Assembly (NCBI GenBank): GCA_964439265.1
Contig: CAYTOA010000002.1
Location: 46,589 to 110,588 of the forward strand
From: an uncultured Chitinophagaceae bacterium
GTDB lineage: Bacteria; Bacteroidota; Ignavibacteria; UBA10030; UBA8401
DNA length: 64,000 nucleotides
Direction of reading: 5' to 3'
Each line of letters begins with the position of its first letter. The first letter of the stretch is position 1. The position numbers and the translations under genes were made by a program. This document shows positions 15,022 to 59,216 of the stretch, one piece after another. The notes under the pieces are model-generated. The model was not told where the DNA came from. It was given only the letters and a program-made list of their open reading frames with translations, and did no database searches.

Positions 15022-15609
15022 TCACTTGATTATTGCGCGATGTTCTCTATTTCTCAGTTTGACAATGACGGGTTTCACCTGACTCTCGTAGCAATCCGGA
15101 CATATTCCATGTGAAAATGCGGTGTCGGTTTTTTGCTTGATATGTTTCTCGATGGATACCCACGTATCGTCATCTTGTCGTATCCTTCGGCAGTAAGAAC
15201 ATATCGGCAAGATCGAATGAAGCTGTCGTATCTCGTGCTGCATTCCTAATATACGTTCTGCAACGCGTAAACGTGCTGAGAGCTGTTCAGAATCAAATGG
15301 TTTCGTGATAACGTCGTCTGCGCCGGCGTTCATTGCTTCAAGATAGCTCCCTTTTCCGCGCAGGATTGTCAAGAATATTACAAAGGTGTAGGATTCTCTA
15401 TTCTCCTGGCGGATCATGCGTGTCAGCTCAAGGCCGTTCAAGTTCGGCATCATCCAGTCGGTGATGACGAGCCTCGGGTTCTTCGCCTGGAAGATACTCC
15501 ATGCTTCCTTACCGTCAGCGGCGACGTAAACTTCGTGGTTAAGTTCCTGGAGTTGTTCTGACAAGAGCATTTGAGTGACGATGTCATCCTCAACAACAAG
15601 TATTTTCAT
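15022..15609 (-). CDS. Response regulator: receiver + coiled-coil + Cys/His-rich C-terminal module (CxxC-N26-HGxCxxC)
   Basis: Receiver motifs KILVVEDD...[13 protein letters not shown]...KPF, then [40 protein letters not shown]. Its start overlaps the upstream kinase's stop (ATGA at 15606-15609). Confidence 0.85.
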
Positions 15610-17861
15610 TGGAATTCTTCCTTTGGGATGTACGTTGCAAGCTCCGTTGCCGCTTGCGTAAACAAATTTTCAAGGGTCTCAATCAGGCTAGCCGATTCTT
15701 CGATGGATTCATTCATATCCAGATGTTCAATTTCCTCGCAGGCTTTTGCCAGTTGAAAGGCGCCAATTTGGGCGCTGCTTCCGCGTAAAGAATGTGCAAC
15801 CTTTCGCACTTGGGTCATGTCTCCGGAACGTGCCCAGTCTCGCATTGCGGCGATCCTCAATGGAACATCATCCCTGAACTTGCGAATGACACGCTCCAGA
15901 AGACTTGGTCGTGATTTTGTCTTGATGCTTGCAATCTCCTGAATTCTCGCCCTGTCGATGACATTGTCAGCATACGGCGGACCGGATGTCGAAACGGCGC
16001 ATTTCTTCTGGAGGGTTTTCCGAGTTCCCCAATAGCGTGCACTCCATTTTTCCATCATCTCGAGAAGTTCCACCCGTTTGAACGGTTTCGCGATATAATC
16101 ATCCATGCCGGCCCGCATGCACCGTTCCCGGTCTCCTTCAAACGCATTTGCGGTCATCGCTATGATGATCGCTTTTTTGTCTGGGCTTTCATGGTCACGG
16201 ATGCGACGAGTTGATTCATACCCATCCATGACAGGCATCTGACAATCCATAAAAATAATATCGAAAGGGGAGCGTTCGTTTTTCTCCACGGCAGAAAGCC
16301 CATCCGGGACGACGGTTACCTGAAATCCGAGTTTCGTGAGAATGGCGGTGGAAACCTCCTGGTTGATCTGGTTATCTTCTGCAATTAGAATGCGGATTCC
16401 TTTGTTTGAAGATTCAAAACCATCGGGCCTGGAATCCGGGATAATTATTTCCGCCGCCGTGCGTTCGTGTTGTAAAGACTCGTTCATGATCGGCTGCGAC
16501 GAAGCAGGAACATGACTCTGCATCTGGTTGCGCAGAGGGATCGTAAACCAAAAAGTACTCCCTTCTCCGGGAAAGCTATTGACTCCTATGTTGCCGCCCA
16601 TGAGTTCCACGAGTTGTTTGGATATTGCAAGCCCGAGCCCTGTCCCGCCGTATTTTCGTGTTGTCGATCCGTCGCCTTGCGTGAAGCTTTGGAATAAGTT
16701 CGCCTGCACATCGGCGGGGATGCCAATACCCGTGTCAGTCACCGAGACCGTAATCATCGATTTTACTTCATCCCGGTTATCCGCGGCGGCACTCACGGTA
16801 ACAGACCCGTGCTCCGTGAATTTTATCGCATTTCCGACGAGGTTCATAACAATTTGCCGGATCCGAAGCGAATCTCCGCAATACTCCGTGATTGAATCCA
16901 GAGAGTACTCACAAATGAGTTTCAGCCCTTTTTGATCTGCTTTGCCCTCAAGAATCTCAACGACGTCGCGAATAACCTGAACAAGGTCGAATGCGACGTT
17001 TTCGATAAGCAGCTTGCCCGCTTCGATCTTAGAGAAATCAAGAATGTCGCTAATGATCGCCAGGAGTGCGTCTCCTGATGTACGGATGAGCATCGCGTAC
17101 CTTCGATCTTCTTTCCCTAGTTCAGAATCCATGAGAAGTTCTGACATGCCGATGATCCCACTCAAGGGAGTCCGCAGTTCGTGGCTCATGTTGGCTACAA
17201 ATTCGGACTTCAAACGAGATGCGCGTAACGCCACATCCTTGGCCTCCATAAGTTCCTTTGTTCTCTCTTCTACTTTTTGTTCGAGAAGCCTGTTCTGATT
17301 GCTGATACGCTGATAGAGTTCAAGCTGTTCAAGTGCGACCGTCGTTTTGTAAAGAATAATTGACATAAGGCTAAGGGCCATCTTGTTCGGAATCGTCTCA
17401 GGGTTCCTGGCTATACCGACGAACATGCCGATGACTTTCCTTTGCGTCTCAAGACCGTGTAATACAAAGATGCGGGCATCGTTCCTGGACGGTATGGGAA
17501 TGGGCCTGTTCTGATGTAATGCCCAGCCGAAAAGCCCTTCTTCGATAAGTTCGTCAACTTCCTTTTGAACGGACTCCCTTTCGCGGGGCGGCTCGACATT
17601 ATCGAGCAGAAACTCGTTGCTCGTTTCGTTTGGCCGAAAAAAAACAAAAGTTTCAAATCCGACGAGACGGCCGAGGTGTTCACAGGCTGCCCTGTAGATC
17701 GCATCCTTATCCCGGTTAAAATCGATAAAGGACCGCACTTCATCGAAGGCTGAGACTTCTTCGAAAGATTCCAGCATCCATTGATTTGTTTCTTCGAGGT
17801 AGCGAACCCGTTCCAGCAGCGAGTCGACGCTCGGCTTGGTATTCTTATCTTCGTCCAGCAT
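15606..17861 (-). CDS. Hybrid histidine kinase: GAF-like, HisKA, HATPase_c, receiver, Hpt
   Basis: H-box [14 protein letters not shown]-boxes DTGIGIP / GGTGLGLAI, receiver [12 protein letters not shown]...[13 protein letters not shown], and Hpt [15 protein letters not shown] prefer the start at 17861 (TGATG overlap with the HDOD stop) over the 50-codon extension in the track. Confidence 0.9.
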
Positions 17862-18733
17862 CAACCCCCCTTGTGAAACATGTTTAGGACGCCTTCCAGT
17901 TGCCGATCGACGAGATCGAAGATCTGGGGAAGAAATCCCGGATTCAATCCCAATATTTTCCATGCATCTTCGTCGATGGGGGGGACAAAGAACTCCCCGC
18001 TGTTTCCACACTGCATTGAATGTGCGATGGCATCTGCAATGTGAATAACGTACGCTTCCTGCCGATAGCGGTCAGCGTTCCGGGGTATATGGTGATAACG
18101 GACAACTTCCTCCAGGCTGCCTGGCAGCTTCCATGCTTCGATCAATGCCGCGCCGACTGCCGCATGATCATAGCCGATAATTTCCTGTTCAGTCGTGAAC
18201 ATCGGCTGCGGACGCTCGGCCGCGCGGGTAAAGACCTTGTCCATCAGGTCAGGTATCTTGTCGTACATGAGAAGTCGTCCGACGTCGTGGAGGATGCCTG
18301 CAACAAAAAATCGTTCGACGTTTGATTCACGATTGAGACCTGCAAGGACCCTCGCTGCGAGGCCGCAAGCGACGCTGTGTTTCCAAAACGTCTCCATGGA
18401 AACAAAGCGTTCGGGTATACTTCTGAAAAGAGTCACAATAGAGGTAGCGAGAGTAAGGTCATGAAGCTGCTGCGTACCGACCACCATGACGGCGCGCGAG
18501 ATGGTATCGATCTTTCGAGGAAAACCAAAATATGCGCTGTTCACGATGCGCAGGAGTCTTGCGGTAAGTCCCGCATCTTGCATGATGATGGAGGTGATCT
18601 GCCCGACGGTAGTTCGCTGGCTGAAAATTGCTTCGTTCAGGCGTTCGTGTACGACCGAGACAGAAGAGAGTCTTTCAGTGCCGTCTAAAAGATCCCGCGG
18701 ACTGCTGAACACGTTTAACCTCCTTCTGTCCAT
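17861..18733 (-). CDS. HDOD domain protein
   Basis: [45 protein letters not shown] and [10 protein letters not shown]...[18 protein letters not shown] are typical HDOD signatures. Confidence 0.85.
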
Positions 18734-19056
18734 GACATTGCGATTCTATTCGTTGCCAATCGTATTAGTTCTTTCACAAAAATGTTGTTCCGGTCCGCGT
18801 GTTGAAATAGTGTTTCCGCTTTGGCTGCCGCCTCCATCATGATCCGAGCGTCGACGTGAGATTCCTGCGAGATGCTGTGTACAGCTGCGCTCTGCTCGTC
18901 AATGCTTATTTCGAGAATGCCCCACGTTTTCAGGATCTTAATCCCATTGTGAGTTATGACAGTTCCTTTCTGCAAAAGAATCGTCCCGCGAAGATCGGTT
19001 ACCGTGTCCTCGACGATCATTCCCTCACAAAGTTGATTGATGCCAATTTTTGCCAA
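18715..19056 (-). CDS. Small protein resembling the N-terminal DUF3391-type domain of HD-GYP/HDOD regulators
   Basis: IGINQLCEGMIVEDTVTDLRGTILLQKGTVITHNGIKILKTWGILEISID follows the 'L.pGM.l..dv....G..Ll..G..it...i..L...gi..v.I' pattern. It uses a TTG start preceded by GAGG and overlaps the HDOD gene by 19 nt. Confidence 0.5.
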   Translation of the reverse strand: MAKIGINQLCEGMIVEDTVTDLRGTILLQKGTVITHNGIKILKTWGILEISIDEQSAAVHSISQESHVDARIMMEAAAKAETLFQHADRNNIFVKELIRLATNRIAMSWTEGG

Positions 19057-21213: not shown

Positions 21214-24200
21214 TCAAAAATCTGAAGAAGCACCAATTAATATCCTCGAAACTTTTTCCATGAGCGCACTCGGCTTGTAGGGCTTTTGTATGAAGGAGTG
21301 AGGGAGGATGTCGCCGAATACAGATCGAATCTCCTCTTCCGTGTAACCGGAGCAGAGAAGCACATTTACGTCGCTGTTGATCTTGAGAAGTTCGTGAAAA
21401 GCGGTCTTGCCATCCATGCCCGGCATGGAGTAATCTAAGACCACCAGCAGAATGGATTCTTGGTGTTGGCGGTAGAGTTCAATCCCCTCGATCGGATCTA
21501 AGGCCTTGATCACTTTAAAACCTGCATCCGTGAAGACATCCGTCAATAACTCAAGCACGGAAGGTTCATCGTCAATCACGAGGACGGTTTTTCCCTCACC
21601 GTCAAGCGCAGGAATCTGTTTCGTCTCTTGCGATTTCGGTTTCAATAAAGGCTGGACCATCGGGAACACAACGTCAAATTCACTCCCTTTACCGCTTTCG
21701 CTGTGAATGCGGATCCCTCCATGGTGCCCACGTATGATTCCAAGCACTGCGGCGAGGCCCAGTCCTCGTCCGGTAAATTTTGTCGTAAAGAACGGGTCAA
21801 AGATCCGCGCCAGCAATTCCGGCTTGATCCCGTGTCCCGTGTCGTTCACCTGGAATGAAACGTAAGGGCCGGGTGGAAGGGAAATGTTGGTATACCTGGA
21901 GTATTCCTTCGCGTTCAACGCGATTTCAATTTGACTGGTGTGAACGGTGATAGAGCCCGGATTTGTGCCGAGCGCCTCGCCCGCATTGATGATAAGGTTC
22001 ATGACAACTTGTTGGATCTGGCCTACGTCGCCCCGCATGCAAAGGGGTGTGCGGTCGAGGTCGTACAGCAGGTGGGCCGACTTTGGTATGGACACTTCCA
22101 GCAGCTGTGCGTTTTCCTCTACCAACCGGTTGAGATCGAAATCATCGGTTAGAAATTTTCCTTTTCCCGAGTAGGCGAGTAACTGTCGTGTCAGATCTGC
22201 GGCCCGCTCGGCTGCCTTGAGGACTTTTGCGATGTTGTTGCCGGCCGGACTTTCTTTCGGGAGCTTGCCGAGGGCCAGAGATGATTGCCCCATGATGGCA
22301 TTGAGGAGATTATTGAAATCGTGAGCGATACCGCCCGCAAGGGTACCGATGCTCTCCAACTTTTGTGCATGGCGAAGCGCCTCCTCTGCGCGCTTGCGGT
22401 CCGTGATATCTTCTTTCACGGCAAGGAAATTAGTCACTACGCCGTCCTGGTCCTTGACGGGGGAGATTGACGTTATTTCCCAAAAAAGTTCGCCGTTTTT
22501 CTTTCTATTATGGAATTCACCGCGCCAATCCTTGCCGGCAGTGATGTCCTGCCACAATCTTCTGTACTCTTCCGGCGATGTCTCTCCGGATTTTAATATG
22601 TTGGGTTTTTTCCCGATGGCTTCGTCCATGGTGTAGCCCGTAACTTGTGTAAATTTCGGGTTGACGTATTCGATATTTCCCTGCGTGTCGGTGATAACAA
22701 TGGAAGCCGGGCTTTGTTCGATGGCGATGGAAAGCTTGCGCAGCTGCCGTTCAGCTTCTCTGCGTTCCGTGATGTCATGGATAATTGAAAACAGGTGTTG
22801 TTTTCCATCCAACATAATTGGGGAGGAATGCACTTCCACGCTGCGCACTGCGCCGTTTGCAAGGCGATGTGCAAAAATGAATGAGCTCTTTTCACTCACC
22901 AGCGCTCGCGACAGCTCCGCTTGGACTTCTCCTGCCGCCATCATGTTGATATTCTGTATGGACATTCCTCGTAACTCGTTTACGGAATATCCATAAAACC
23001 TCTCTGCAGCCGGATTGGCATCGTTGATCTCGCCGGACACGGGCTCGATAAGGAGCATGACGGCATCGTGCATCTCGAACATACTGTGAAACCGTTCCTC
23101 ACTTTCCCGCAACGCCTCCTCGGCGCGCTTTCGCTCTGTGATATCCTGGACAAGTCCGTGAACGTAATGGCGGCTTCCCACTTCCAGCGACGACCCGGTG
23201 ATGAGAGCAATAAAGGTCGAACCGTCTTTCCGCATAAGTTCGACTTCTCTTTTGCCCGACTCACGTTGATCGGCAACCCGGCTGAATAACTTCAGGGAAG
23301 AGCGCTTCGGCATGAGATCGATGACGCGCATCGCAAGAAGCTCTTTTTCTGTGTACCTCGTCATCCTGCAGAATGCCGGATTGACCATGATGTAACGACC
23401 GTCCAGATCGGCGATAGTGATCCCTTCATTGCTTTGTTCGACCGCGGCGCGGTAACGGAGCTGGCTTTCACGCAGCGCTTCCTCCGTTCGTTTACGCTCC
23501 GAGATATCGCGGACGATAAGCTGCACAGCGGGTCGGTTGCCGAAGGTCACCGGCAGAGCTTTTACTTCGACGTCGACGTCCGTCCCGTCCAGCCTCACAA
23601 ATTTCTCCTCCAGGAGCGGAAGCGGATCGTTCGATAATAATGCTTCCTTCATCCTCTCAATAATCATCTGCCGGTACTCAGGATGAACGAGATCGAGGAC
23701 CGGCGTTCCGATCAACTCCTCCATACCCGATGCTCTTACAAGAGCGACGCTGGCGCTGTTCGCAAAAACAATCTTTCCGTCGACGTATATCGCAATGCCG
23801 TCGGGGAAGCCTTCGACGAGTTGGCGGTAATTTAGTTCGCTTTCCTGAAGCGCTTGTTCTGCCTCTTTCCGCTCAGTGATGTCCTGGACAAGGCCGTCGT
23901 AAGCAGCGATCTCCCCCGTTTCATCGCGATGGAGAACAAACGTGTTTCTTACCCAGCGCAACGATCCGTTTTTATGCACGATTCGGTGCTCGAGAGGGGG
24001 GGGGATTTTGCCGGCCATGATCAGCCGCGCTTGTTCCTCCACAACGGGACGGTCTTCGGGGAACACCATGTCGATCCAGAGGTAGGGTTGGTCTTTGAAC
24101 TCATCGGGCTGGTAACCGGTGATAGAGACACATCCCGGTCCATGGTCTGTATTGGTAACTTTTCCTTCTTTCACATGCGCGGTATAGATGTAGTCAGTGA

Positions 24201-26310
24201 TCGCCGCAATGATTCTCTGGTAACGATCCTCGCTGTCGCGAAGTGCGTCTTCGAACTGCCTGCGTTCCGTAATATCCCTTACGGCCGCCATTCGCAAATG
24301 CTTCCCCTGATAAAAAATTGGTTTTGAAAATACTTCGAGAATCAGCCGCGTGCCGTCCGAACGGATCGCACCGGTTTCGAAGTGAGTCTCGTCACCAGAA
24401 GAGATGTGCTGACGAAGTGAGGTGTGCATTTCGGTCGCCGAAAAATCGAGCAGTGATTTGCCGATGGCCTGCTTCCTGGTATAACCGAGCATTCGGCACA
24501 TCGCCTCATTGACCTCGACGATCACTCCATTGTCCTGGATCGCAATTCCTTCGACTGTCGCTCCCCACAGTTCGCGGAACTGGGATTCGCTTGCCCGAAG
24601 CGCGATTTCTGCCATTTTGCGCTCGGTGATATCTTCCACGGTGCCATCATAATAGAGTATCTTGCCGTGAGAGTCCCGGATTGCACGGGCGCTTTCTCTT
24701 ACATAGATGACCGAGCCATCGTGACGAGTCCAGGCACTCTCCAAGCCATTGACCTCTCCATCCTGTTCCACACGGTCGATAAATTGTCTTCTTTCATACG
24801 ATGGTTCGAAGCCTTCCCGTTCGAGATTCCTTGCTGCCAGTTCTTCGAATGTGGAGTAGCCAAGTTTCTTGACGAGTGAAGGATTTGCCAGAATTATTAC
24901 TCCGTCTGGCGTTGTCCGGTACAGGCCGAGACTTGAATTTTCGTAGATCGAACGAAAGCGTTCCTCACTAGCCCGCAGTGCTTTGTCTGCCTCCTTGCGT
25001 TCGGCGATATTTCTTGCGGTTGTGTGCATATAGAGCACGCCCGCTATCAAAATGCGCTTGTTATTAAACTCTGCGTCGACTTTTGAACCGTCTTTGCGGA
25101 GGATCTTCGCCTCGCTTGCGATTTCTTCTCCATCGAAGATCTTATTGTTGTAGGTTGTATACGCGGTTAAATCGAGCTGGTCATGAAGATCGGGAATCTG
25201 CATCCCGAGGAGCTGCTCTCGAGAGTAGCCGGTGAGTTCACAAGCGGCGTTGTTGACGGCGACAAACCGGGAATCCGTGTCTGAGATGAACACGGAATCT
25301 CGTGAGCCTTCAAAAATGGCTTCCTGCCATTCGAGGGCTTGCCTTAAACTCTCTTCTCCATGCTTGCGTGCGGTGATGTCCTGGATATGGGTGATGAAGC
25401 ATTGAGGGCGGTGTTGTGCGTCTCGAATGAGGGAACTTGAGATGCTCGCCCAAATAATGTTTCCCTGTTTGTGGAGATACCTTTTTTCAAGTTTGATTTT
25501 TTCCTCTCCGCGGGTTTCATGGCGGCTGAGAAAGTCCAAGGTCAGTGCCATGTCGCCCGGATGCGTTATCTGTGAAAGAGTCATTTGTTCAAGCTCTTCC
25601 TGGCTGTAACCAAGAATCTCACACAGCGCATTGTTCACTCTAAAAAATTGTCCGTCAATACTTGTCAGGCTCATTCCCACATTTGCGTTTTCGAAGGCAA
25701 GATGAAATCGCTCTTCAATTCCTTCCAGCGTGCCCGGGAGCAATTCTAAAGGAGCTGCAAACGTGATCGAGATTCCGCAGACAACAACGATCATGACGAT
25801 CCAGGCAAGGGGAGACCGAATGTAGAGGAGAGGCGACGTGCCATAATCAAGCCAGCCGCCGACAAAAAGAACCGCTGTGATCGAGAGGAAGAGAAAAAGG
25901 AAGGCAATGCTCGCGTACGCAGTCTTCCGGTGGCCGAGCATCATCAGGTAGAGAGTAATAGCCGGCGCGATAACGAGCGCTGCAGACATAAGACCCAATG
26001 TAACGACTCCTGAGACAAGGATTAGTGCGAGCATGATGATCATCATCACCGCGAACGTCTCAGGCCGAGTACTTTTTCTTCGAAGGAAGAGAATCGTCAT
26101 TACGATCGCGAGCAGTACGTGGAGATACATGACAGGCCGGACTCCCAAGATCGGAATTCTAGCGATTGTAAGGATGGCGTTAATCAGGATGGCCGCAAAG
26201 AACAACGGAATGAATCGACGCGTGATGTTGTTTCGCAATGATTCAACAGAAATGTGGAGATTCTGTCCGTCGGGTTTCAAAGGATTTATCCTTATGGGTT
26301 CAATTCTCAA
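21214..26310 (-). CDS. Giant hybrid sensor histidine kinase: ~6 TM N-terminal region, ~9 PAS/PAC modules, DHp, HATPase_c, receiver
   Basis: Nine 'DITERK..E.AL' linkers. H-box LESIGTLAGGIAHDFNN, G-boxes DTGHGIK / GRGLGLAAV, and receiver VLVIDDEP...LVVLDYSMPGMDG. The start is uncertain because 26310 is a TTG. Confidence 0.9.
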   Translation of the reverse strand: MRIEPIRINPLKPDGQNLHISVESLRNNITRRFIPLFFAAILINAILTIARIPILGVRPVMYLHVLLAIVMTILFLRRKSTRPETFAVMMIIMLALILVSGVVTLGLMSAALVIAPAITLYLMMLGHRKTAYASIAFLFLFLSITAVLFVGGWLDYGTSPLLYIRSPLAWIVMIVVVCGISITFAAPLELLPGTLEGIEERFHLAFENANVGMSLTSIDGQFFRVNNALCEILGYSQEELEQMTLSQITHPGDMALTLDFLSRHETRGEEKIKLEKRYLHKQGNIIWASISSSLIRDAQHRPQCFITHIQDITARKHGEESLRQALEWQEAIFEGSRDSVFISDTDSRFVAVNNAACELTGYSREQLLGMQIPDLHDQLDLTAYTTYNNKIFDGEEIASEAKILRKDGSKVDAEFNNKRILIAGVLYMHTTARNIAERKEADKALRASEERFRSIYENSSLGLYRTTPDGVIILANPSLVKKLGYSTFEELAARNLEREGFEPSYERRQFIDRVEQDGEVNGLESAWTRHDGSVIYVRESARAIRDSHGKILYYDGTVEDITERKMAEIALRASESQFRELWGATVEGIAIQDNGVIVEVNEAMCRMLGYTRKQAIGKSLLDFSATEMHTSLRQHISSGDETHFETGAIRSDGTRLILEVFSKPIFYQGKHLRMAAVRDITERRQFEDALRDSEDRYQRIIAAITDYIYTAHVKEGKVTNTDHGPGCVSITGYQPDEFKDQPYLWIDMVFPEDRPVVEEQARLIMAGKIPPPLEHRIVHKNGSLRWVRNTFVLHRDETGEIAAYDGLVQDITERKEAEQALQESELNYRQLVEGFPDGIAIYVDGKIVFANSASVALVRASGMEELIGTPVLDLVHPEYRQMIIERMKEALLSNDPLPLLEEKFVRLDGTDVDVEVKALPVTFGNRPAVQLIVRDISERKRTEEALRESQLRYRAAVEQSNEGITIADLDGRYIMVNPAFCRMTRYTEKELLAMRVIDLMPKRSSLKLFSRVADQRESGKREVELMRKDGSTFIALITGSSLEVGSRHYVHGLVQDITERKRAEEALRESEERFHSMFEMHDAVMLLIEPVSGEINDANPAAERFYGYSVNELRGMSIQNINMMAAGEVQAELSRALVSEKSSFIFAHRLANGAVRSVEVHSSPIMLDGKQHLFSIIHDITERREAERQLRKLSIAIEQSPASIVITDTQGNIEYVNPKFTQVTGYTMDEAIGKKPNILKSGETSPEEYRRLWQDITAGKDWRGEFHNRKKNGELFWEITSISPVKDQDGVVTNFLAVKEDITDRKRAEEALRHAQKLESIGTLAGGIAHDFNNLLNAIMGQSSLALGKLPKESPAGNNIAKVLKAAERAADLTRQLLAYSGKGKFLTDDFDLNRLVEENAQLLEVSIPKSAHLLYDLDRTPLCMRGDVGQIQQVVMNLIINAGEALGTNPGSITVHTSQIEIALNAKEYSRYTNISLPPGPYVSFQVNDTGHGIKPELLARIFDPFFTTKFTGRGLGLAAVLGIIRGHHGGIRIHSESGKGSEFDVVFPMVQPLLKPKSQETKQIPALDGEGKTVLVIDDEPSVLELLTDVFTDAGFKVIKALDPIEGIELYRQHQESILLVVLDYSMPGMDGKTAFHELLKINSDVNVLLCSGYTEEEIRSVFGDILPHSFIQKPYKPSALMEKVSRILIGASSDF

Positions 26311-27048
26311 ATGCCGAAATTCGTGAAATGTCCGCGCCGTAGATCTGACACGCTTGTGGAAGAGAGATCGTGCTGAGTCGTGTCAATATTTTTCGCTAAG
26401 GACTCCCGGTTTCGCTTCAGTGATTTCAGGGGTTGCAATACAGTCCACCTTTATGTATATCGGCAGAACGATCAACAATCTTCTCTCCAAAAGCGATCGA
26501 TTTGCAGCAAACAAACGACAGTTCTCTCAGGGAGAATACGATCGTGCACGCAACAACGACTTTTTGCCTTCGATTTTTGTTATAACAGGAGCCCCTTTTA
26601 TCGAAACGTATCATGCGCTATGGGGATTCGCTTGTATTTCCCCGGCGCGTCAAGTTCTGATTTCTGTTCCCATTGGGAGGGTGGAAAAGTTACTAGTTCC
26701 TTTAATTCTACAATAACTATGCCTCTCAATACAGGCAATATGAAGTGGATTTTGAGCAAATCTTGTCAAAGATGGGAAGAATTGGGCTTGAATTCGCCGT
26801 CACGCTAAAATCAAGGGAAGGGTATAGTCTGCACACATCACCAGCCATTTGGAGGAGTTGGGTGGAATGTGATCGACGATAGGAGGAGACATTTGTTTGG
26901 CGGAGAAGCTGCTGCGGCGAACGATCGGTGTTCTGTCGGCATCTGCGCAGCTGATATCACCATTCCCCAAAGTAATATTCGCCTTCAACGTGCCCGGTCT
27001 CTGTTATTCAGCGGGTAACCACATCGCCTTCGCTGTCCTTTATAATGA

Positions 27049-29682
27049 TCAGGCCGGATCCTTACGAGGGAAAATATCCGGGTAGAGATTGTTTGCACAA
27101 TCGGGACAAAGCCCATGGGAGAATTTGGCTTCGGAGTGACTTTGGATATATCCTTCCAAAAGATCCCAGTATCCCCTGTCATTCCGGATTTTCTTACAGC
27201 TTGAGCAGATCGGAATTAATCCGCCGAGAACTTTAATACTCGTCAGGGCTTCCTGGACCTTCAGTTCTAACTCCCTTTTTCTTTTGATGAGTTGCCACAT
27301 TCGAAGCAGATAGAAACCGATTGCGCATCCGACGAATAGAAGCAGGACCAGAGTGTAAAACCAGTATGTCTGATAGAAATGAGGCTCGAGAATAAACGCA
27401 AAGGCTGCCCCGGTTTCATTCCATACGCCGTCATTGTTGCAGGCCATTACACGAAATCGATACTTACCAGGCGGAAGGTTTGTATAATATGCCACGCGGC
27501 GCGTTCCTGCATCAACAAACTCGCGGTCAAATCCTTCCAGCATGTACTTGAATCGGACCCTCTCAGGTACCAGGTAGCTCAATGCAGCATACTGAAATTC
27601 CAGTTTCTCGGTCCCGGGTGAGAGCGAGCAAGAATCTCCGGGAGCGATAACTTGGAGGTCCGCAATCACATGCTTAATAAACGTCGGCGGAATGAGTCCA
27701 TTTCTATTGAGTGATTTCGGATCGATCACCACGGCTCCCTTCCTAGTTGCAAACCAGAGCCGTCCGTCGTGAGTTCTGCAGGCAGCCGGCTGCCACGAAG
27801 GAATACACTCTTCCGTTTTCATTCCGTCAGCCTCGTCAAAAACCTGGGTATGGATGCCGCTGCTTCGGCCTGTTTCGAAATCATCGAGTTCCTGGCGCGA
27901 CACATGTCCGATTCCCCGTGGACTGCTCAGCCAGAGATCTCCTGCATCGTCTTCTAAGACGCAATAGATTTCATCATTGAACAATCCGACTTTTGTGTTG
28001 TACTTGGTAAACTTTCCCTCATGGAATCGGGTCACTCCTCCGCGAGGTGAGGCAATCCATAAGCTCCCTCGTCCGTCGTCAAGAATGGAGTTAACCCAAG
28101 AATCGGCCAATCCGTCAGCCGGGCCAAAGGTCTTCACCTCCCCGTCTCGGACTCTAAGCAGTCCATTCGATGTCCCGATCCACAGTGTGCCGCTTGCATC
28201 GAGAAAGAAACAGCTGACGTAATCAACCGGCACAAATGGCACACCTTTTTTCAATTCGTACGGCATTAGTTTTCCATCTTTGAATCTTCTTATGCCTACA
28301 TAGTTGATATATAGAAGAATACTTTCCGTATCCTCGCCGATCGCCGTAATCCAACGCATCGGCATCCCGGCGCTCGTATCATACTGTTTAAGTCGTCCGT
28401 CTTTCACTACTGACAAAAATCCGGTTTGCGCGACCCATAATCTCCCATCATGCGAAACAAATGCGGGTCCTACCGGAGTCTTTATCTCGGACAGCTTGCC
28501 GTTCTTCATTCGAGTGATGCTGAACGTCTCGTCACTGAGAAGATACAAACTTCCGTCTGGTGTCTCTGCGACGCTTGAAATGTAGTTGCTGACAAGGCCC
28601 TCTTTCGTAGAATACGGCGTTACGTTGACATCCTTAAACCTGTTCAGGCCGTCAACCGTGGCCACCCACAGGCTTCCCTCACGATCTTCGACAATCGACA
28701 TGACGTAATTATTGCTTAACCCGTCAGTCTCTGTGAATGATGTCCATTTTCCCGCGCTGTATCTGTTCAGCCCGCCTTTACGAGTGCCGACCCAAATATT
28801 TCCGTCCCGGTCTTCGAAGATGACAGTGACCTGTTCATTTGAAAGTCCGTCAGCAGTCGTAAAGGCTTTCATCAATCCATCGCTCCAGCGAACCAGTCCT
28901 TGGTATCCGCCAATCCAAATATCTCCAGCTTTGTCGGCACAAAGGGCGGTGACGTATTGACGGCGTCCATGGATTGTGACCTGCATGGACTGCGTTACCG
29001 AGTCTCCTTGCAGGATGCGTACTCCGTCTGGTGTGCCTACCCAAACTCTTCCTTCCGAATCCTCGGTAATCCCGGTTACATAGGGTGGAGCAACTGGGAC
29101 ATCCAGAAATCTGTCACCGTCCAACCTGTAGAGCCCGTACGAGGTTCCCGCCCAAATATGTTTTGACGAGCTCTGATGGAGTGCATTCACATTCCTGCTC
29201 TTGATGCCTTCGGATTCGCCATAACGGTAGATCTTTCCATTTTGTAATCGACAAAGTTGATTAGCAAAAGTACCAACCCATAGACTGCCATCGCCGGATT
29301 CGCACAATGATGAAATGGCTTCGCGGTTGACATTGTCGCCTGTAATCGTGCTCACAGACTCAAACGTCTCTCCATCAAAGCGAAACAGGCCGGCGGTCAT
29401 TCCAAACCAAAGGTAGCCGTCTGAAGTCTGCAGGCATGCGTTGACGGCGCTGCCCGGCAGGCCGTTTTGCTTGAGCCATTTGTCGTGCACATACTGATCG
29501 ATGGTCTTTTTCGGATCTAATGCATAGAGGTGTGAGATCGGGAATATGAGCGCGATGACAACAAGTGCCGAGAGGAGAGTCCTGTAACTAAAGCGCTTCG
29601 CGTCATTGCCGTGTTTCACGACGTGTATCGCTTCGCGTCTTCGTCTATTGTGTTCTGAGTCCATAAGAGTGTCCAAGGTCAC
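27049..29682 (-). CDS. Periplasmic two-component-regulator propeller (Reg_prop repeats) + Y_Y_Y domain sensor; one TM, coiled coil and a Cys/His-rich C-terminal module; no kinase or cyclase domain
   Basis: Repeated 'D..G.lWvGT..GL.r' blades. Y_Y_Y region FKYMLEGFDREFVDAGTRRVAYYTNLPPGKYRFRV. TM helix YWFYTLVLLLFVGCAIGFYLL. It ends IPICSSCKKIRNDRGYWDLLEGYIQSHSEAKFSHGLCPDC. The start could be the GTG at 29682 or the ATG at 29664. Confidence 0.85.
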   Translation of the reverse strand: MTLDTLMDSEHNRRRREAIHVVKHGNDAKRFSYRTLLSALVVIALIFPISHLYALDPKKTIDQYVHDKWLKQNGLPGSAVNACLQTSDGYLWFGMTAGLFRFDGETFESVSTITGDNVNREAISSLCESGDGSLWVGTFANQLCRLQNGKIYRYGESEGIKSRNVNALHQSSSKHIWAGTSYGLYRLDGDRFLDVPVAPPYVTGITEDSEGRVWVGTPDGVRILQGDSVTQSMQVTIHGRRQYVTALCADKAGDIWIGGYQGLVRWSDGLMKAFTTADGLSNEQVTVIFEDRDGNIWVGTRKGGLNRYSAGKWTSFTETDGLSNNYVMSIVEDREGSLWVATVDGLNRFKDVNVTPYSTKEGLVSNYISSVAETPDGSLYLLSDETFSITRMKNGKLSEIKTPVGPAFVSHDGRLWVAQTGFLSVVKDGRLKQYDTSAGMPMRWITAIGEDTESILLYINYVGIRRFKDGKLMPYELKKGVPFVPVDYVSCFFLDASGTLWIGTSNGLLRVRDGEVKTFGPADGLADSWVNSILDDGRGSLWIASPRGGVTRFHEGKFTKYNTKVGLFNDEIYCVLEDDAGDLWLSSPRGIGHVSRQELDDFETGRSSGIHTQVFDEADGMKTEECIPSWQPAACRTHDGRLWFATRKGAVVIDPKSLNRNGLIPPTFIKHVIADLQVIAPGDSCSLSPGTEKLEFQYAALSYLVPERVRFKYMLEGFDREFVDAGTRRVAYYTNLPPGKYRFRVMACNNDGVWNETGAAFAFILEPHFYQTYWFYTLVLLLFVGCAIGFYLLRMWQLIKRKRELELKVQEALTSIKVLGGLIPICSSCKKIRNDRGYWDLLEGYIQSHSEAKFSHGLCPDCANNLYPDIFPRKDPA

Positions 29683-30956
29683 AGCGCAAAAAAAGGGAGG
29701 TTGCTTCCGGAGCCGAACTAGTTGGAAGGCCCTCCCATATCATTATCGACAAAATTATCTTAAATCTTAAGATTAAAAGCTTCCGCCCATGTGTTGGTGG
29801 ACCGAGATGATGAGCATCTTCCGACGGAACGGCGATCACAATCCTCGAATCCCGACCTCGTTTTGACGGCGCTTTTCCCAATCTCAAGATGCAGAGTTAA
29901 CCTCTCCTCAATAAATAGCCAATAACCGTGCCAGCAAGTCAAGAGATTGTTCTCTTTTCTCACATAAAATCGTCGAATAAGGGTTCTCCCAGTGAGAGTA
30001 GATGTGCGGTATTGATGATATTCCCACTTTTCAGAATTCAGTGAATATTTCATTAGATCGCTCGCCTGGAAGGTTCTTTGTTCTTGATTGGCCCTCCGGC
30101 TGCACTACCAATCCTCTTTTAGATGTTTCTGGTCGTCGCAGCTGAGGCGCTGACTCCTGCATAAATCCATCGGCAGAGATCGAAGGGGACGTGGAATGAT
30201 AGTTGAGAGTTTTCGGTGCTCCGAGAAATTCAAAGCTTACCGTGAGATATTAACCACGGGTATTGTGCAAATATTGTCACCCATTCTATTCGCAAATTAA
30301 GGTAAGAAAGCCTCATCATCCGTCGTTATGACGATAAGGCGTTTCAGCCTGATCTTCTGCTCAACTTGATGAGGAGAACTGCGACGAGGTGCAACAACGA
30401 GTCAATCCGCGCTTACGGAGTGATTGCATTGTTGCAGGTCGAATTGGTTCTGAAACGTACCCAGTTCGAGTCCTTTGGGTCCAGATCGTCGAGGAAGAAG
30501 TGGAAACAAAAGCTGCGCGATCGCGAAAAAATGAACAGGAAGATAGGAAAAGAAAGCAATCTCTCACGAATCCCTTTATCCAGATGCCTGTGCGCGTGCC
30601 CGATTTCTTCGAGGGCTATTCATCAAGCGGAAATATTCGAAGAATGTTTTTATGGTGAGTGTCCCCGGATCTTTTGTATCCGTGAGGCTCAATTGAAAGT
30701 CGGTGCCGAAGAAAGCGTTAGGAGATTTGGCTTTTGAGTTGCAATCCCTTCCACAGTGTAGTATATTTACACCGGATTCTACGCGGAGATTCCTCATGAA
30801 TCAACTGATATGCTCGCACCTGTCCAAAGATCAGAAGCATATCGGTTGACCGCTGTTAATAGCAAGTGGTTACAGAAGCAATTACGTGTAGCCAAAATAG
30901 TGCAATCTTCATCTGTCTGTTTATTGCACGAGCGCTGAGAACATATTGATTTCCCC

Positions 30957-31029
30957 GCCCTTGTAGTTCAACAGGATAGAACGGGAGTTTCCTAAACTTC
31001 TAATCGCAGTTCGAGTCTGCGCGAGGGCA
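30957..31029 (+). tRNA. tRNA-Arg (anticodon CCT), CCA not encoded
   Basis: Hand-folded cloverleaf. Acceptor GCCCTTG/CGAGGGC (one G-U pair). D arm GTTC-AACAGGATA-GAAC. Anticodon arm GGAGT-TTCCTAA-ACTTC. 4-nt variable loop. T arm CGCAG-TTCGAGT-CTGCG. Discriminator A. Confidence 0.85.
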
Positions 31030-56651: not shown

Positions 56652-59216
56652 TCATTTGACGACCATGAGCTTCCTCGTCTCGCTGAATTTCCCGGCTTGC
56701 ATCCGGTAAAAATATACTCCACTCGGCAGAGTAGAAGCAACGAAGGTTGCCGAATAAAATCCGGCACTCATATGCTTATTGACTAACGTCTGGATTTCTT
56801 TGCCAAGAACGTCGTACACTTTTAGAGTAACCAGGCTGTTCACTGGCACCTGATACATGATGACTGTTGATGGATTGAATGGGTTGGGGTAATTTTGCGA
56901 TACGGCAAATCGGTCGGGAAGAGCCGTGCCGTCGGATTTTATCCCAGTCAGCGTAACATTCACTTCATTCGAGTAGGCTGATGTCGCAACGGAGTTATAC
57001 CCGCGGATGCGGTAGAAGTATTCATTCCCGGGCACTCCAGTCGCATCTGTATATTCTGTGATGTTCGAGAGTACGGAATCCTTCACCGTATAAGTACCGA
57101 GGAAATTCTTTTTTCTCTCTATGTAATATCCAAGTTCGCTGCCTGAATTATCCTGCCAGGTCAATTGAATGGCGCCACCTACAATTTGAGTACCTGTAAG
57201 GTTGCTTGGCGTTTGCATGGGTGTTACTGCAACTGCGACATTTGAGGAGTTAGAGCTGCCTTCGGTATTTGTGGCAAAGACTCGATAGAAGTACTTTGTT
57301 CCATCATTCAAGCCATCGTCGGAGTAAGAATTGGAATTGGCAGCGAGAGTGTTAATAGGTATCCACGCAGAGGTGCTGTTCGTTGCGCGCTCCACACTAT
57401 AACCGGTTTCGTTTTCAGCATTATCATGCCAGCTCAAGTCGATTCTCCCGGAGTTAATTGCCTCGGCATTAAGGCTCGTCGGCGCAGCAGGGAGACCGAC
57501 TGAGGTGGTCTGAATGCTGCCGCTAACTATCAAGACTCTCGGCCTTCCCTCATTCAAGAGGAACTGCTGTAGCGTAATATTGGCAATCCTTCCGGACGCA
57601 GCGTATGACGGGACGGCAAATCGTAGTTTGCAGACGATACCCGGGAGATTGAGGTTCGCTGCGGTAGCCGCGGCAAAAGAGAATTGAGTCCCAGAGATAT
57701 TAGTGCTGAATGTCCATCCATTCGTAATTGATCCGGCGTTGAAAACTCCGACCGGATGCACGACCGATGAATCAAATGTCACAGTTGCCTGAATGCTCTG
57801 GATGCGCATGCCGGCATTGACAGGGGAAAGCGAAAGCGGAATGTCTATAGTGTCTCCGATCACTCCTGCCGTGTCGGGGATGAAGGCGCGGGTGTCGTAT
57901 ACTTCGATCATATTTGATGCCCCGGTACCGCCGTAGGCGTCAACTGCATGAACAGTAACCGATCCCCCTTTCAAGGCCGTCAGGAGTCCGCTGGAGTTTA
58001 TTGAGCCGATTGTTGCGTCGGAAGTTGACCACGTGTATGGGGAGGTTCCCCCCGTAACGGTGAATCGCAGCGTATCACCATCGATGAGGTTGGCAACGAG
58101 GGGCATGACTGTGAGATTTGCGAGGTTTACAGTTTGAAAATTTCCGCTCGTAGAATCTCCCTGGATGCTCTCATTGAAAACGATGTCGGCCGGATAAATT
58201 GTTGCACTGCCGGAATTTGTCTTCGACACTTTGCACTGAACGTAGACCAATACTCCGCTTCCGCTCAACGGAACAACTCCGGCAAAAGAAATATTCATCG
58301 TCCCTGTTGGGGAGATGCTGAAGACCGGAGCAGAATAGGAAGAGAGCAGAGTTCCGCCCTGGACCACCCCTGTCGGCGTGAAGTAATCCGGATTATACTG
58401 AATTTGAAAATAGCCGGAAGAAACATTCAGTCCGGTTAGATTGGTCGCGTAGACCGGCAGGTTGAAGGTTTGCCCCTGAACGTACGACGTGTCGCGAACG
58501 GACAGCCTGAAGGCTCTGACTTCAACGATTCCGCTTATCGTATCGACGGTACCGGCTTCGTCGCTCACGATGACTCTGGTGAATCCGGTATGAGTTGCAG
58601 TCAATAGTCCGTTGGCATCGATCGATGCGGCAGATGCGTTCGTGAGCGACCAGTGATACGGTGCAGTTCCGTAATAGGCGTTGTATTGCTGTTGATCACC
58701 GACGGCCATCAAACCGCCGAAGGGGTAGAGAGTGATCGAAGGTGCTGCAGCGATACTGACACTCCCGTCGTGCAGTACAACCGCGGGGTTCCGTTCGTTC
58801 AAGAAATTGTTCGCTGATCCGTCCAAGAAGGAGATCGTCGTGCTTCCAGCATTGCGGAGTCGAAAGCGGACATAGACCAATATTCCCGCGCCGGAAAGGG
58901 GCGACGATCCTGCCGCAGCGATCGTTATCGTCCCCGGCGCCATACTATTATAGTTTACGGAACCGATGGATTGGGCCTGGCTCCCGGCTGTAATGACGCT
59001 GTCGAAAGCCATATAATACGTATCGTAGCCGAGTTCGATCTGGAAAGAGGTAACGTTCTTTCCGGTAAGGGAGGAATCAACATAAATTGGTACCGTAAGC
59101 TTCGAGCTGCTAAAAGCGCTCGTGTCATGAATGCTTAACCCCACCTGTGCCAACACCACCGACGAACACACCGGCATCAGGAGGAGAAGTGTCATATACT
59201 TAAAAGTTCTAACCAT
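56652..59216 (-). CDS. Scaffoldin-like secreted protein: three cohesin-like modules interleaved with two Big_2-like Ig domains, then two FN3 domains and a T9SS C-terminal sorting domain
   Basis: Signal peptide ...VVLAQ. Cohesin-like pattern three times (L.V.d.s......v.VPvy...l.g.nv.s....i.yd......gv, e.g. KLTVPIYVDSSLTGKNVTSFQIELGYD). Big_2-like YHWSLTNASAASIDANGLLTATHTGFTRV. FN3 LSWHDNAENETGYSVER and [34 protein letters not shown]...GVYFYRMQAG...KLMVVK. Confidence 0.75.
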   Translation of the reverse strand: MVRTFKYMTLLLLMPVCSSVVLAQVGLSIHDTSAFSSSKLTVPIYVDSSLTGKNVTSFQIELGYDTYYMAFDSVITAGSQAQSIGSVNYNSMAPGTITIAAAGSSPLSGAGILVYVRFRLRNAGSTTISFLDGSANNFLNERNPAVVLHDGSVSIAAAPSITLYPFGGLMAVGDQQQYNAYYGTAPYHWSLTNASAASIDANGLLTATHTGFTRVIVSDEAGTVDTISGIVEVRAFRLSVRDTSYVQGQTFNLPVYATNLTGLNVSSGYFQIQYNPDYFTPTGVVQGGTLLSSYSAPVFSISPTGTMNISFAGVVPLSGSGVLVYVQCKVSKTNSGSATIYPADIVFNESIQGDSTSGNFQTVNLANLTVMPLVANLIDGDTLRFTVTGGTSPYTWSTSDATIGSINSSGLLTALKGGSVTVHAVDAYGGTGASNMIEVYDTRAFIPDTAGVIGDTIDIPLSLSPVNAGMRIQSIQATVTFDSSVVHPVGVFNAGSITNGWTFSTNISGTQFSFAAATAANLNLPGIVCKLRFAVPSYAASGRIANITLQQFLLNEGRPRVLIVSGSIQTTSVGLPAAPTSLNAEAINSGRIDLSWHDNAENETGYSVERATNSTSAWIPINTLAANSNSYSDDGLNDGTKYFYRVFATNTEGSSNSSNVAVAVTPMQTPSNLTGTQIVGGAIQLTWQDNSGSELGYYIERKKNFLGTYTVKDSVLSNITEYTDATGVPGNEYFYRIRGYNSVATSAYSNEVNVTLTGIKSDGTALPDRFAVSQNYPNPFNPSTVIMYQVPVNSLVTLKVYDVLGKEIQTLVNKHMSAGFYSATFVASTLPSGVYFYRMQAGKFSETRKLMVVK

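Follow-up and report, generated by a model that had tools for sequence, protein, structure and literature searches.

How does a receptor signal when its sensor half is that of a hybrid two-component system (HTCS) but its polypeptide ends 84 residues after the transmembrane helix? This question is raised by a gene at 27049..29682 (minus strand) in a 64,000-nucleotide stretch of DNA from an uncultured Chitinophagaceae bacterium (GenBank assembly GCA_964439265.1, contig CAYTOA010000002.1, positions 46,589 to 110,588), which we refer to as the window. An earlier sequence-only reading of the window described the gene product as a periplasmic propeller/Y_Y_Y sensor that lacks a kinase, cyclase or helix-turn-helix (HTH) output and whose sole domain inside the cell is a Cys/His module, and proposed that this tail is either itself the transmitter or docks on another component. 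Our analyses favour, with a probability of about 0.6, the reading that the gene encodes a complete single-pass transmembrane receptor in which the HTCS cassette has been replaced by an autonomous, probably dimeric, metal-binding output module acting on a shared target. The tail is an autonomous and widespread signal-output domain that is absent from the domain databases. What is new here is a modular receptor with an undescribed output domain; the sensor half was already known from HTCS.

The open reading frame (ORF) encodes, as described earlier, 877 residues starting from a GTG codon, and an ATG located six codons into it is the start of a near-identical public protein (P0022, 871 aa, ~100% identical). 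Screening against Pfam detected ten stretches of Reg_prop (E 8e-58) and, at residues 703-763, a Y_Y_Y domain (E 1.6e-17), and did not detect HisKA, HATPase_c, GGDEF, REC/Response_reg, cyclase or HTH domains, including HTH_18/AraC, at E<=1. A search of NCBIfam gave a sub-threshold PorZ-like propeller match and nothing else. Exactly two hydrophobic segments are apparent in the hydropathy profile, residues 31-57 and 772-799. The first may be followed by a cleavage site after ...HLYA, judging from its sequence; the second includes YWFYTLVLLLFVGCAIGFYLL and is followed by a positive-inside K/R cluster, RMWQLIKRKR. In the AlphaFold2 (AF2) model, residues 769-819 form a single continuous helix, which is followed by the Cys/His motif CSSCKKIRNDRGYWDLLEGYIQSHSEAKFSHGLCPDC (features and coordinates are given in Table 1). 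The ORF, the Pfam domains and the hydropathy profile therefore all agree with the architecture described in the sequence-only reading, including the Cys/His module as the only domain on the cytoplasmic side.

The full-length AF2 model has a mean predicted local distance difference test (pLDDT) score of 86, mostly above 90 across residues 60-765, and shows two propellers followed by an Ig-like Y_Y_Y domain. Foldseek matched this ectodomain to the periplasmic domain of the HTCS protein BT4663 (PDB 4A2L/4A2M; E 4e-43, TM-score 0.7-0.8), at a sequence identity of 21-22%, and also to BT3049 (3V9F). For BT4663, the transmembrane signal is reported to be a scissor-like closing of the dimer that the ligand induces, according to the account of Lowe et al. 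2012 given in PMC8534201. The receptor shares with these Bacteroides HTCS the two Reg_prop propellers, the Y_Y_Y domain and the transmembrane helix, as well as glycoside hydrolase (GH) genes beside some of its homologues: these are of the families GH26, GH127 and GH30; GH130, GH5 and GH28; and GH3 and GH42. Such neighbours fit a glycan ligand, and the ligand of the receptor is most likely an oligosaccharide. As far as the account in PMC8534201 goes, dimeric, scissor-type transmembrane signalling is likely to be common to both as well. The likeness ends at the membrane. The periplasmic propellers and the Y_Y_Y domain are flanked by membrane segments as in an HTCS, but Pfam detected neither HisKA and HATPase_c (E<=1) nor a receiver and an AraC-type HTH in the same polypeptide, the cytoplasmic part is 84 residues in total, and the adjoining spacer contains no kinase frame. 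The protein is therefore not an HTCS: it has the HTCS sensor and lacks the defining cytoplasmic features.

We then considered whether this short form is peculiar to the gene in the window. Among the 120 best full-length homologues, 92 carry the module, 5-48 residues before their C-terminus, at 45-67% identity to the receptor. Of these, 86 are 780-920 aa long and have the standard His-containing motif, four of ~850 aa have the His replaced, and the last two are a 686-aa fragment and P0111, in which a PAS domain precedes the tail. The receptor, with its ~850-aa architecture, fixed linker and a module that lies no more than about 15-30 residues from the C-terminus, belongs to this large unnamed family of propeller (Reg_prop/Y_Y_Y) plus Cys4-tail proteins, and its tail belongs to a much larger unnamed signalling family. 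The premise of the sequence-only reading, that Reg_prop plus Y_Y_Y ectodomains usually feed a kinase, GGDEF or AraC output, does not extend to this subfamily, in which the kinase-less form is the norm (92/120).

The rest of the 120 homologues are kinase-bearing relatives (including P0087, P0096, P0100 and P0107), whose ectodomains are 50-57% identical to that of the receptor. BLAST similarity to these proteins runs from residue ~40 to residue ~810, that is, through the ectodomain, the transmembrane helix and a few turns more, and then ceases. Past this point the relatives go into PAS and HisKA or HWE kinase domains (plus REC, Hpt, AraC), whereas in the receptor the juxtamembrane helix runs directly into the Cys4 module. 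The similarity halts cleanly at ~810, and the difference is a domain swap at the juxtamembrane helix, not a frameshift. In P0111, the inserted PAS domain is followed by a tail that is 59% identical to that of the receptor.

The gene sequence itself was found in at least 20 rhizosphere metagenome runs. Contigs from four independent metagenome assemblies show no indels and four single-nucleotide polymorphisms (SNPs) over positions 26000-30000 (at 26101, 27186, 27685 and 29571). A tblastn search with twelve kinase C-termini against both flanking spacers gave a best E value of 0.16, hence no kinase remnant, and Rfam gave no matches in the 738-bp downstream spacer. Both earlier statements, that a truncated hybrid kinase is unlikely and that the ~740 bp downstream hold no kinase-like frame, are thus borne out, and the proper annotation of the gene is that of an intact receptor and neither of a pseudogene nor of a truncated kinase. 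One public contig (L001), otherwise ~100% identical, has Ser instead of the near-invariant Lys at residue 830 (27193-27195; CSSCSK versus CSSCKK), a change that needs at least two base changes and is absent among the four SNPs of the other assemblies.

The tail is not a chance arrangement of cysteines, since searches with the tail alone retrieved homologues at E values of 1e-13 to 1e-38. Since a word-indexed search with the short tail recovers too little of the family (only 21 short fragments), the counts come from an exhaustive search: we built a profile from the tail together with its first homologues and compared it with all representatives of 1.84 billion clusters (50% identity). This profile matched 24,927 clusters at E<=1e-3, of which 20,516 reached E<=1e-10. 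The distance from the first to the fourth cysteine is 37 residues in 254 of 254 copies compared (162 cluster-representative modules and 92 from the Reg_prop family). Five module positions are invariant (C1, C4, W14, C34 and C37), seven more are at least 94% conserved (K5, R8, D10, G12, E18, Y20 and H31), and the module is preceded by a conserved helix and an L-x-G-L-L-P-I motif. The tail of the receptor matches the profile, and all of these invariant and near-invariant residues are present in CSSCKKIRNDRGYWDLLEGYIQSHSEAKFSHGLCPDC. The 162 representative modules share a mean pairwise identity of 65%, despite coming from separate 50%-identity clusters, and have a mean net charge of -1.9 (range -6 to +1).

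The module nearly always forms the very C-terminus of its protein, the proteins ranging in length from 94 to 1,405 aa. A scan of one genome per species gave at least 593 confirmed matches, of which 80 loci were kept. These loci represent more than 15 phyla, including Bacteroidota, Ignavibacteria, Thermodesulfobacteriota, Nitrospirota, Nitrospinota, Spirochaetota, Chloroflexota, Acidobacteriota, Verrucomicrobiota, Lentisphaerota, Planctomycetota, Hydrogenedentota, Calditrichota, Sumerlaeota and others; this taxon sample, like the 150 listed cluster representatives, leans toward the best-scoring matches and the query. We used Pfam to determine which domains accompany the module. In 112 representatives these were PAS (80), REC (10), GAF (6) and HAMP (5), together with MASE3, MASE6, CHASE, CHASE3, Tll0287, 7TM and Reg_prop. 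At 75 genome loci they were PAS (21), REC (17), Reg_prop (5), GAF (5), VUPS (4), MASE3 (3), SBP_bac_3 (3) and HAMP (3), together with PocR, sCache and dCache. In neither census (112 + 75 = 187 proteins) was a HisKA, HATPase_c, GGDEF, EAL, HD-GYP or HTH domain found beside the module. Proteins with two modules are tandem sensor-module units (REC-module twice, MASE6-module twice). The receptor thus has the same C-terminal module as the PAS-, REC-, GAF-, HAMP-, CHASE-, Cache- and MASE-module proteins and differs from them in its input domains; most of the others are cytoplasmic, whereas the receptor has a large periplasmic sensor. Databases label members of the module family 'PAS domain S-box protein', 'response regulator', 'ligand-binding sensor domain-containing protein' or 'hypothetical protein'.

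Because the module pairs exclusively with input domains, we regard it as an output domain. The window itself contains a second example. A 195-aa response regulator consisting of a REC domain, a helix and the module is encoded at the end of an apparent phosphorelay operon (15022-19056, minus strand), which further comprises a DUF3391-like gene (18715..19056), an HDOD/HD gene (17861..18733) and a hybrid HK-REC-Hpt gene (15606..18011). The ATG of the regulator gene overlaps the stop codon of the HK-REC-Hpt gene, and the module of this regulator is the terminal output of the phosphorelay. The proposal that the tail is itself the transmitter is supported by these data, in that the module follows only input domains, including the REC domain of this operon.

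A search of a plasmid collection gave one module match, at L088 5001-5141 on the Dongshaea marina plasmid NZ_CP028898.1, where it is unannotated. An IS21 transposase gene lies between this module and an adjoining 'GAF domain-containing protein' gene, so that an insertion sequence has probably divided a GAF-module gene here.

The linkers that connect the module to its sensors are fixed in length. Of 95 PAS-module proteins, 94 have a distance of 35 residues from the DITxRK motif, at the end of the PAS domain, to the first cysteine, and the remaining one has 42, that is, one heptad (+7) more. Likewise, 68 of 69 propeller receptors have 59 residues between the PxFY motif preceding the transmembrane helix and the first cysteine. 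In REC-module proteins the distances from the KP[F] motif of the REC domain to the first cysteine fall in 7-residue steps (41/48/55, 50/57/64 and 45/52/59); this motif detection is crude, and the steps hint at heptad-quantised linkers in these proteins too. Fixed helical linkers with heptad increments are a hallmark of dimeric, coiled-coil-driven outputs such as PAS-HisKA and PAS-GGDEF. Paralogous receptors within one genome are 52-66% identical in the ectodomain and 70-95% identical in the module. In other genomes, the propeller-tail receptors lie in tandem, two to six paralogues per array, and the stop and start codons of some of them overlap by 4 bp (L006 1-15835, L007 5425-10559); L006 also contains apparent fragmented copies, with Reg_prop and Y_Y_Y pieces of 156-230 aa.

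When the tail was modelled alone (pLDDT 76), AF2 predicted a helix, a strand, a CxxC knuckle, a beta-hairpin, a short helix, a strand and a second CxxC at the N-terminus of a helix, which would be a layout like that of a zinc knuckle or treble clef. In having a knuckle on a hairpin and a second one where a helix starts, the model is similar to zinc-ribbon and treble-clef domains. The tail has two CxxC knuckles, the second being CPxC, in common with rubredoxin and Cys4 knuckle domains, and the 37-residue span in common with rubredoxin; it differs from both in the residues conserved between the knuckles.

Several known families were tried as candidates and rejected. Identity with rubredoxin (PF00301) was rejected at the sequence level (hhalign probability 1.5%; no Pfam match at E<=10). 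The motif of the tail, H-x2-C-x2-C, differs from the H-x3-C-x2-C of ZAS/zf-HC2 proteins, there was no zf-HC2/RsrA match at E<=10, and the topology is reversed with respect to that of ZAS anti-sigma factors, with the cytoplasmic domain of the receptor being C-terminal. DksA/TraR (PF01258) has a spacing of x17 where the tail has x29, and gave no match at E<=10, though HMMER filters may hide very weak ones. A ToxR/CadC-type regulator was discarded since the receptor has no Trans_reg_C or other HTH match. The matches to the Rad50 zinc hook, to the anti-sigma factor FIN (fold search, E 8) and to human papillomavirus (HPV) E7 were not significant. Finally, residues 7-25 of the module (27133-27189; IRxDDGxWxxxEGYxxxHS) are similar to the N-terminal hairpin of glutamate dehydrogenase, IRRDDGSWEVIEGYRAQHS (profile versus PDB, E 0.012); the glutamate dehydrogenase segment has no cysteines, and the similarity is probably a convergent hairpin or chance.

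Taken with the motif, the predicted AF2 topology and the fixed helical linkers, we propose the following for the module. Its motif and modelled fold suggest that it most probably binds one metal ion, Zn or possibly Fe, via the four invariant cysteines, and it probably acts as a dimer. The receptor would be a dimer whose two ectodomains close scissor-like upon ligand binding, as in BT4663. This closing would bring together or rotate the transmembrane and juxtamembrane helices into a parallel coiled coil, thereby setting its register or proximity; parallel dimeric coupling is proposed because the linkers are fixed in length with a heptad increment. The register of the helices would set the relative position of the two metal-bound modules, and the paired modules would then bind or release a cytoplasmic target. 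Because the module is near-invariant across paralogues and phyla, is slightly acidic and is attached to many different sensors, this target is more likely to be one conserved, shared component, for example a protein hub or a small ligand, and less likely to be DNA of specific promoters.

Several observations weigh against this reading. A minority of module copies have another residue in place of the conserved His, which is why the four cysteines alone are taken as the likely metal ligands. The module part of the full-length AF2 model is poor, with pLDDT below 50 at residues 815-839. Searches with the tail gave nothing significant in Pfam or NCBIfam (E<=10), among PDB sequences (phmmer and profile searches) or among PDB folds (Foldseek), and a search of the open full-text literature gave no description of the module, subscription journals being a possible exception. 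The basic CKKIR patch of the module could still bind nucleic acid. Finally, clustering of the neighbouring genes (1,028 ORFs at the 80 loci) gave no family common to more than 14 loci and therefore no target candidate.

The alternative that survives best is that the module is a small zinc-finger nucleic-acid binder, in which case the protein would be a membrane-tethered one-component regulator of transcription (or of RNA), with a logic like that of ToxR/CadC or of the AraC end of HTCS. REC and PAS proteins most often have DNA binding as their output, but the tail shows no similarity to any known DNA-binding family in the Pfam and PDB searches. The near-invariant basic residues K5/K6/R8 form a patch suited to nucleic acid, yet the modules as a whole carry the negative mean charge given above. 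The dimeric helix-plus-finger layout suggested by AF2 resembles that of other DNA-binding zinc modules, although merely ~32 residues separate the module from the membrane. The glycoside hydrolase genes beside some family members are possible regulated genes; however, same-genome paralogues with diverged ectodomains retain modules that are 70-95% identical, which is hard to square with binding to different promoters. On balance, we consider a nucleic-acid target unlikely.

The Cys4/His site could also be a redox- or metal-responsive centre, either a thiolate switch with Zn or an Fe site of the rubredoxin type, which would add a cytoplasmic redox or metal input and would signal via regulated oligomerisation or proteolysis instead of a dedicated target. 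Cys4 zinc sites are known redox switches, for instance in Hsp33 and RsrA. The CxxC...CPxC layout and the 37-residue span are as in rubredoxins, as seen in an alignment, but the hhalign probability of 1.5% argues against kinship. The module is prominent in anaerobic and micro-oxic lineages (Desulfobacterota, Nitrospirota, Anaerolineae, Spirochaetota and Ignavibacteria), in a taxon sample that is, however, skewed toward the query. Moreover, a module placed after REC at the end of a phosphorelay occupies an output and not an input position, and many of its non-ligand surface residues are near-invariant, suggesting a binding interface. A redox- or metal-sensing role appears improbable to us.

The sequence-only reading had put forward the multi-transmembrane, multi-PAS hybrid kinase gene located downstream (21214..26310) as a candidate partner, on which the tail would dock and for which the receptor would serve as the missing periplasmic sensor. 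The two genes are on the same strand and close to each other, both in the window and in the same-strain contig L001, and the kinase has N-terminal transmembrane helices without a recognised periplasmic domain. This adjacency is not conserved, though: the kinase is downstream only in L001, and the synteny is absent in eight other contexts. A UvrD-type helicase gene lies downstream in the case of the three non-identical homologues closest to the receptor (64-67% identity), and other homologues have unrelated genes downstream, adjoin glycoside hydrolase genes or are located in tandem arrays of paralogues. The gap of 738 bp is also long for an operon. Histidine kinases are the commonest neighbours of module genes (PAS-HK at 14 of 80 loci, followed by ABC ATPase at 7, NtrC-type activator at 6 and acyl-CoA ligase at 6), but a kinase-specific partner cannot explain the conservation of the module in ~25,000 clusters of many architectures. 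We therefore regard docking on this kinase as very improbable. As regards co-transcription of the two genes, the sequencing runs containing the receptor gene included no RNA runs, and in a promoter/terminator scan the counts of consensus sequences equalled those in shuffled sequence.

A decayed or misassembled hybrid kinase, cut by a frameshift or an assembly error, can be dismissed as next to impossible, since, the 50-57% identity of the closest kinase-bearing relatives over the whole ectodomain notwithstanding, the common end with the module in 92 of 120 homologues, the absence of indels across four assemblies, the empty spacers, the clean swap point and the strong purifying selection on the tail rule it out.

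The usual outputs of bacterial signalling proteins are histidine kinases, GGDEF, EAL and HD-GYP domains, cyclases, methyl-accepting chemotaxis proteins, Ser/Thr kinases or phosphatases, and HTH domains. The module occupies the exact position of these outputs, coupled by signalling helices of fixed length, in ~25,000 clusters and more than 15 phyla. A broader proposal, to which we give somewhat less than even odds, is that the module is an undescribed universal output that would form a separate branch of bacterial signal transduction, involving neither phosphotransfer nor synthesis of nucleotide second messengers nor DNA binding by an HTH. By it, many sensors in each genome (PAS, REC, GAF, Cache, CHASE and propeller receptors) would converge on one conserved cytoplasmic target, and the gene in the window would be its transmembrane, glycan-sensing form. 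Finding the target of the module would give a function to thousands of generically labelled signalling proteins. It would also explain the way in which glycan availability is reported by kinase-less HTCS-like receptors, a group expanded as tandem arrays in Bacteroidota and Acidobacteriota of soil and sediment.

Table 1. Features of the receptor gene, its downstream spacer and the second module gene in the window (positions are those of the window).
Feature	Position	Strand	Residues	Basis or remark
Whole gene, transmembrane receptor	27049..29682	-	877 aa	Stop codon 27049-27051; alternative ATG start 29664
N-terminal hydrophobic segment (signal peptide or N-terminal anchor)	29512..29592	-	31-57	Hydropathy; AF2 helix 33-46
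Periplasmic sensor (two Reg_prop beta-propellers and Ig-like Y_Y_Y)	27388..29505	-	~60-765	Pfam, AF2, Foldseek
Y_Y_Y domain	27394-27576	-	703-763	Pfam
Transmembrane helix, YWFYTLVLLLFVGCAIGFYLL	27304..27366	-	773-793	Hydropathy, AF2
Juxtamembrane helical linker, fixed length	27208..27303	-	794-825	AF2 helix; homologue distances; swap point ~residue 810
Cys4(+His) module, CxxC-x29-CxxC, 37-residue span, CSSCKKIRNDRGYWDLLEGYIQSHSEAKFSHGLCPDC; predicted metal-binding output domain	27097..27207	-	826-862	Motif, homologues
Short C-terminal extension with semi-conserved LYP motif	27052..27096	-	863-877	Homologue comparison
Spacer between receptor gene and PAS kinase gene 21214..26310, 738 bp	26311..27048	-		tblastn, Rfam
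Second module gene, response regulator (REC + helix + module; module 15091-15201)	15022..15609	-	195 aa	Motif, Pfam

The window contains two giant multi-PAS hybrid histidine kinase genes on the minus strand, 9370-14916 and 21214-26310, which encode proteins of 1848 and 1698 aa, respectively. The two proteins are clear paralogues in the last PAS domain and the kinase core (LSLAVEQNPASIVITDPTGTIEYVNPKFTQITGYT versus LSIAIEQSPASIVITDTQGNIEYVNPKFTQVTGYT), and each has hydrophobic regions at the N-terminus in which no sensor domain is recognised. On the other side of the receptor gene, an isolated tRNA gene (30957-31029, plus strand; Rfam RF00005, 58 bits) is located in a gene-poor region of 1.37 kb that separates the receptor gene from the divergent SBP gene. 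The region 31053-51320 (plus strand) resembles a glycan-utilisation locus governed by a sigma-54 system. One of its products is a CBM9 protein with a type IX secretion system (T9SS) sorting tail; such a tail is also present in the product of 56652..59216, and these tails indicate a host of the Bacteroidota/FCB group. The locus further comprises genes for an SBP_bac_1 protein, a histidine kinase, an NtrC-type activator, a TonB-dependent receptor with CarboxypepD_reg, an SSF symporter and a GDSL esterase, as well as four ORFs of 287-741 aa without a Pfam match.

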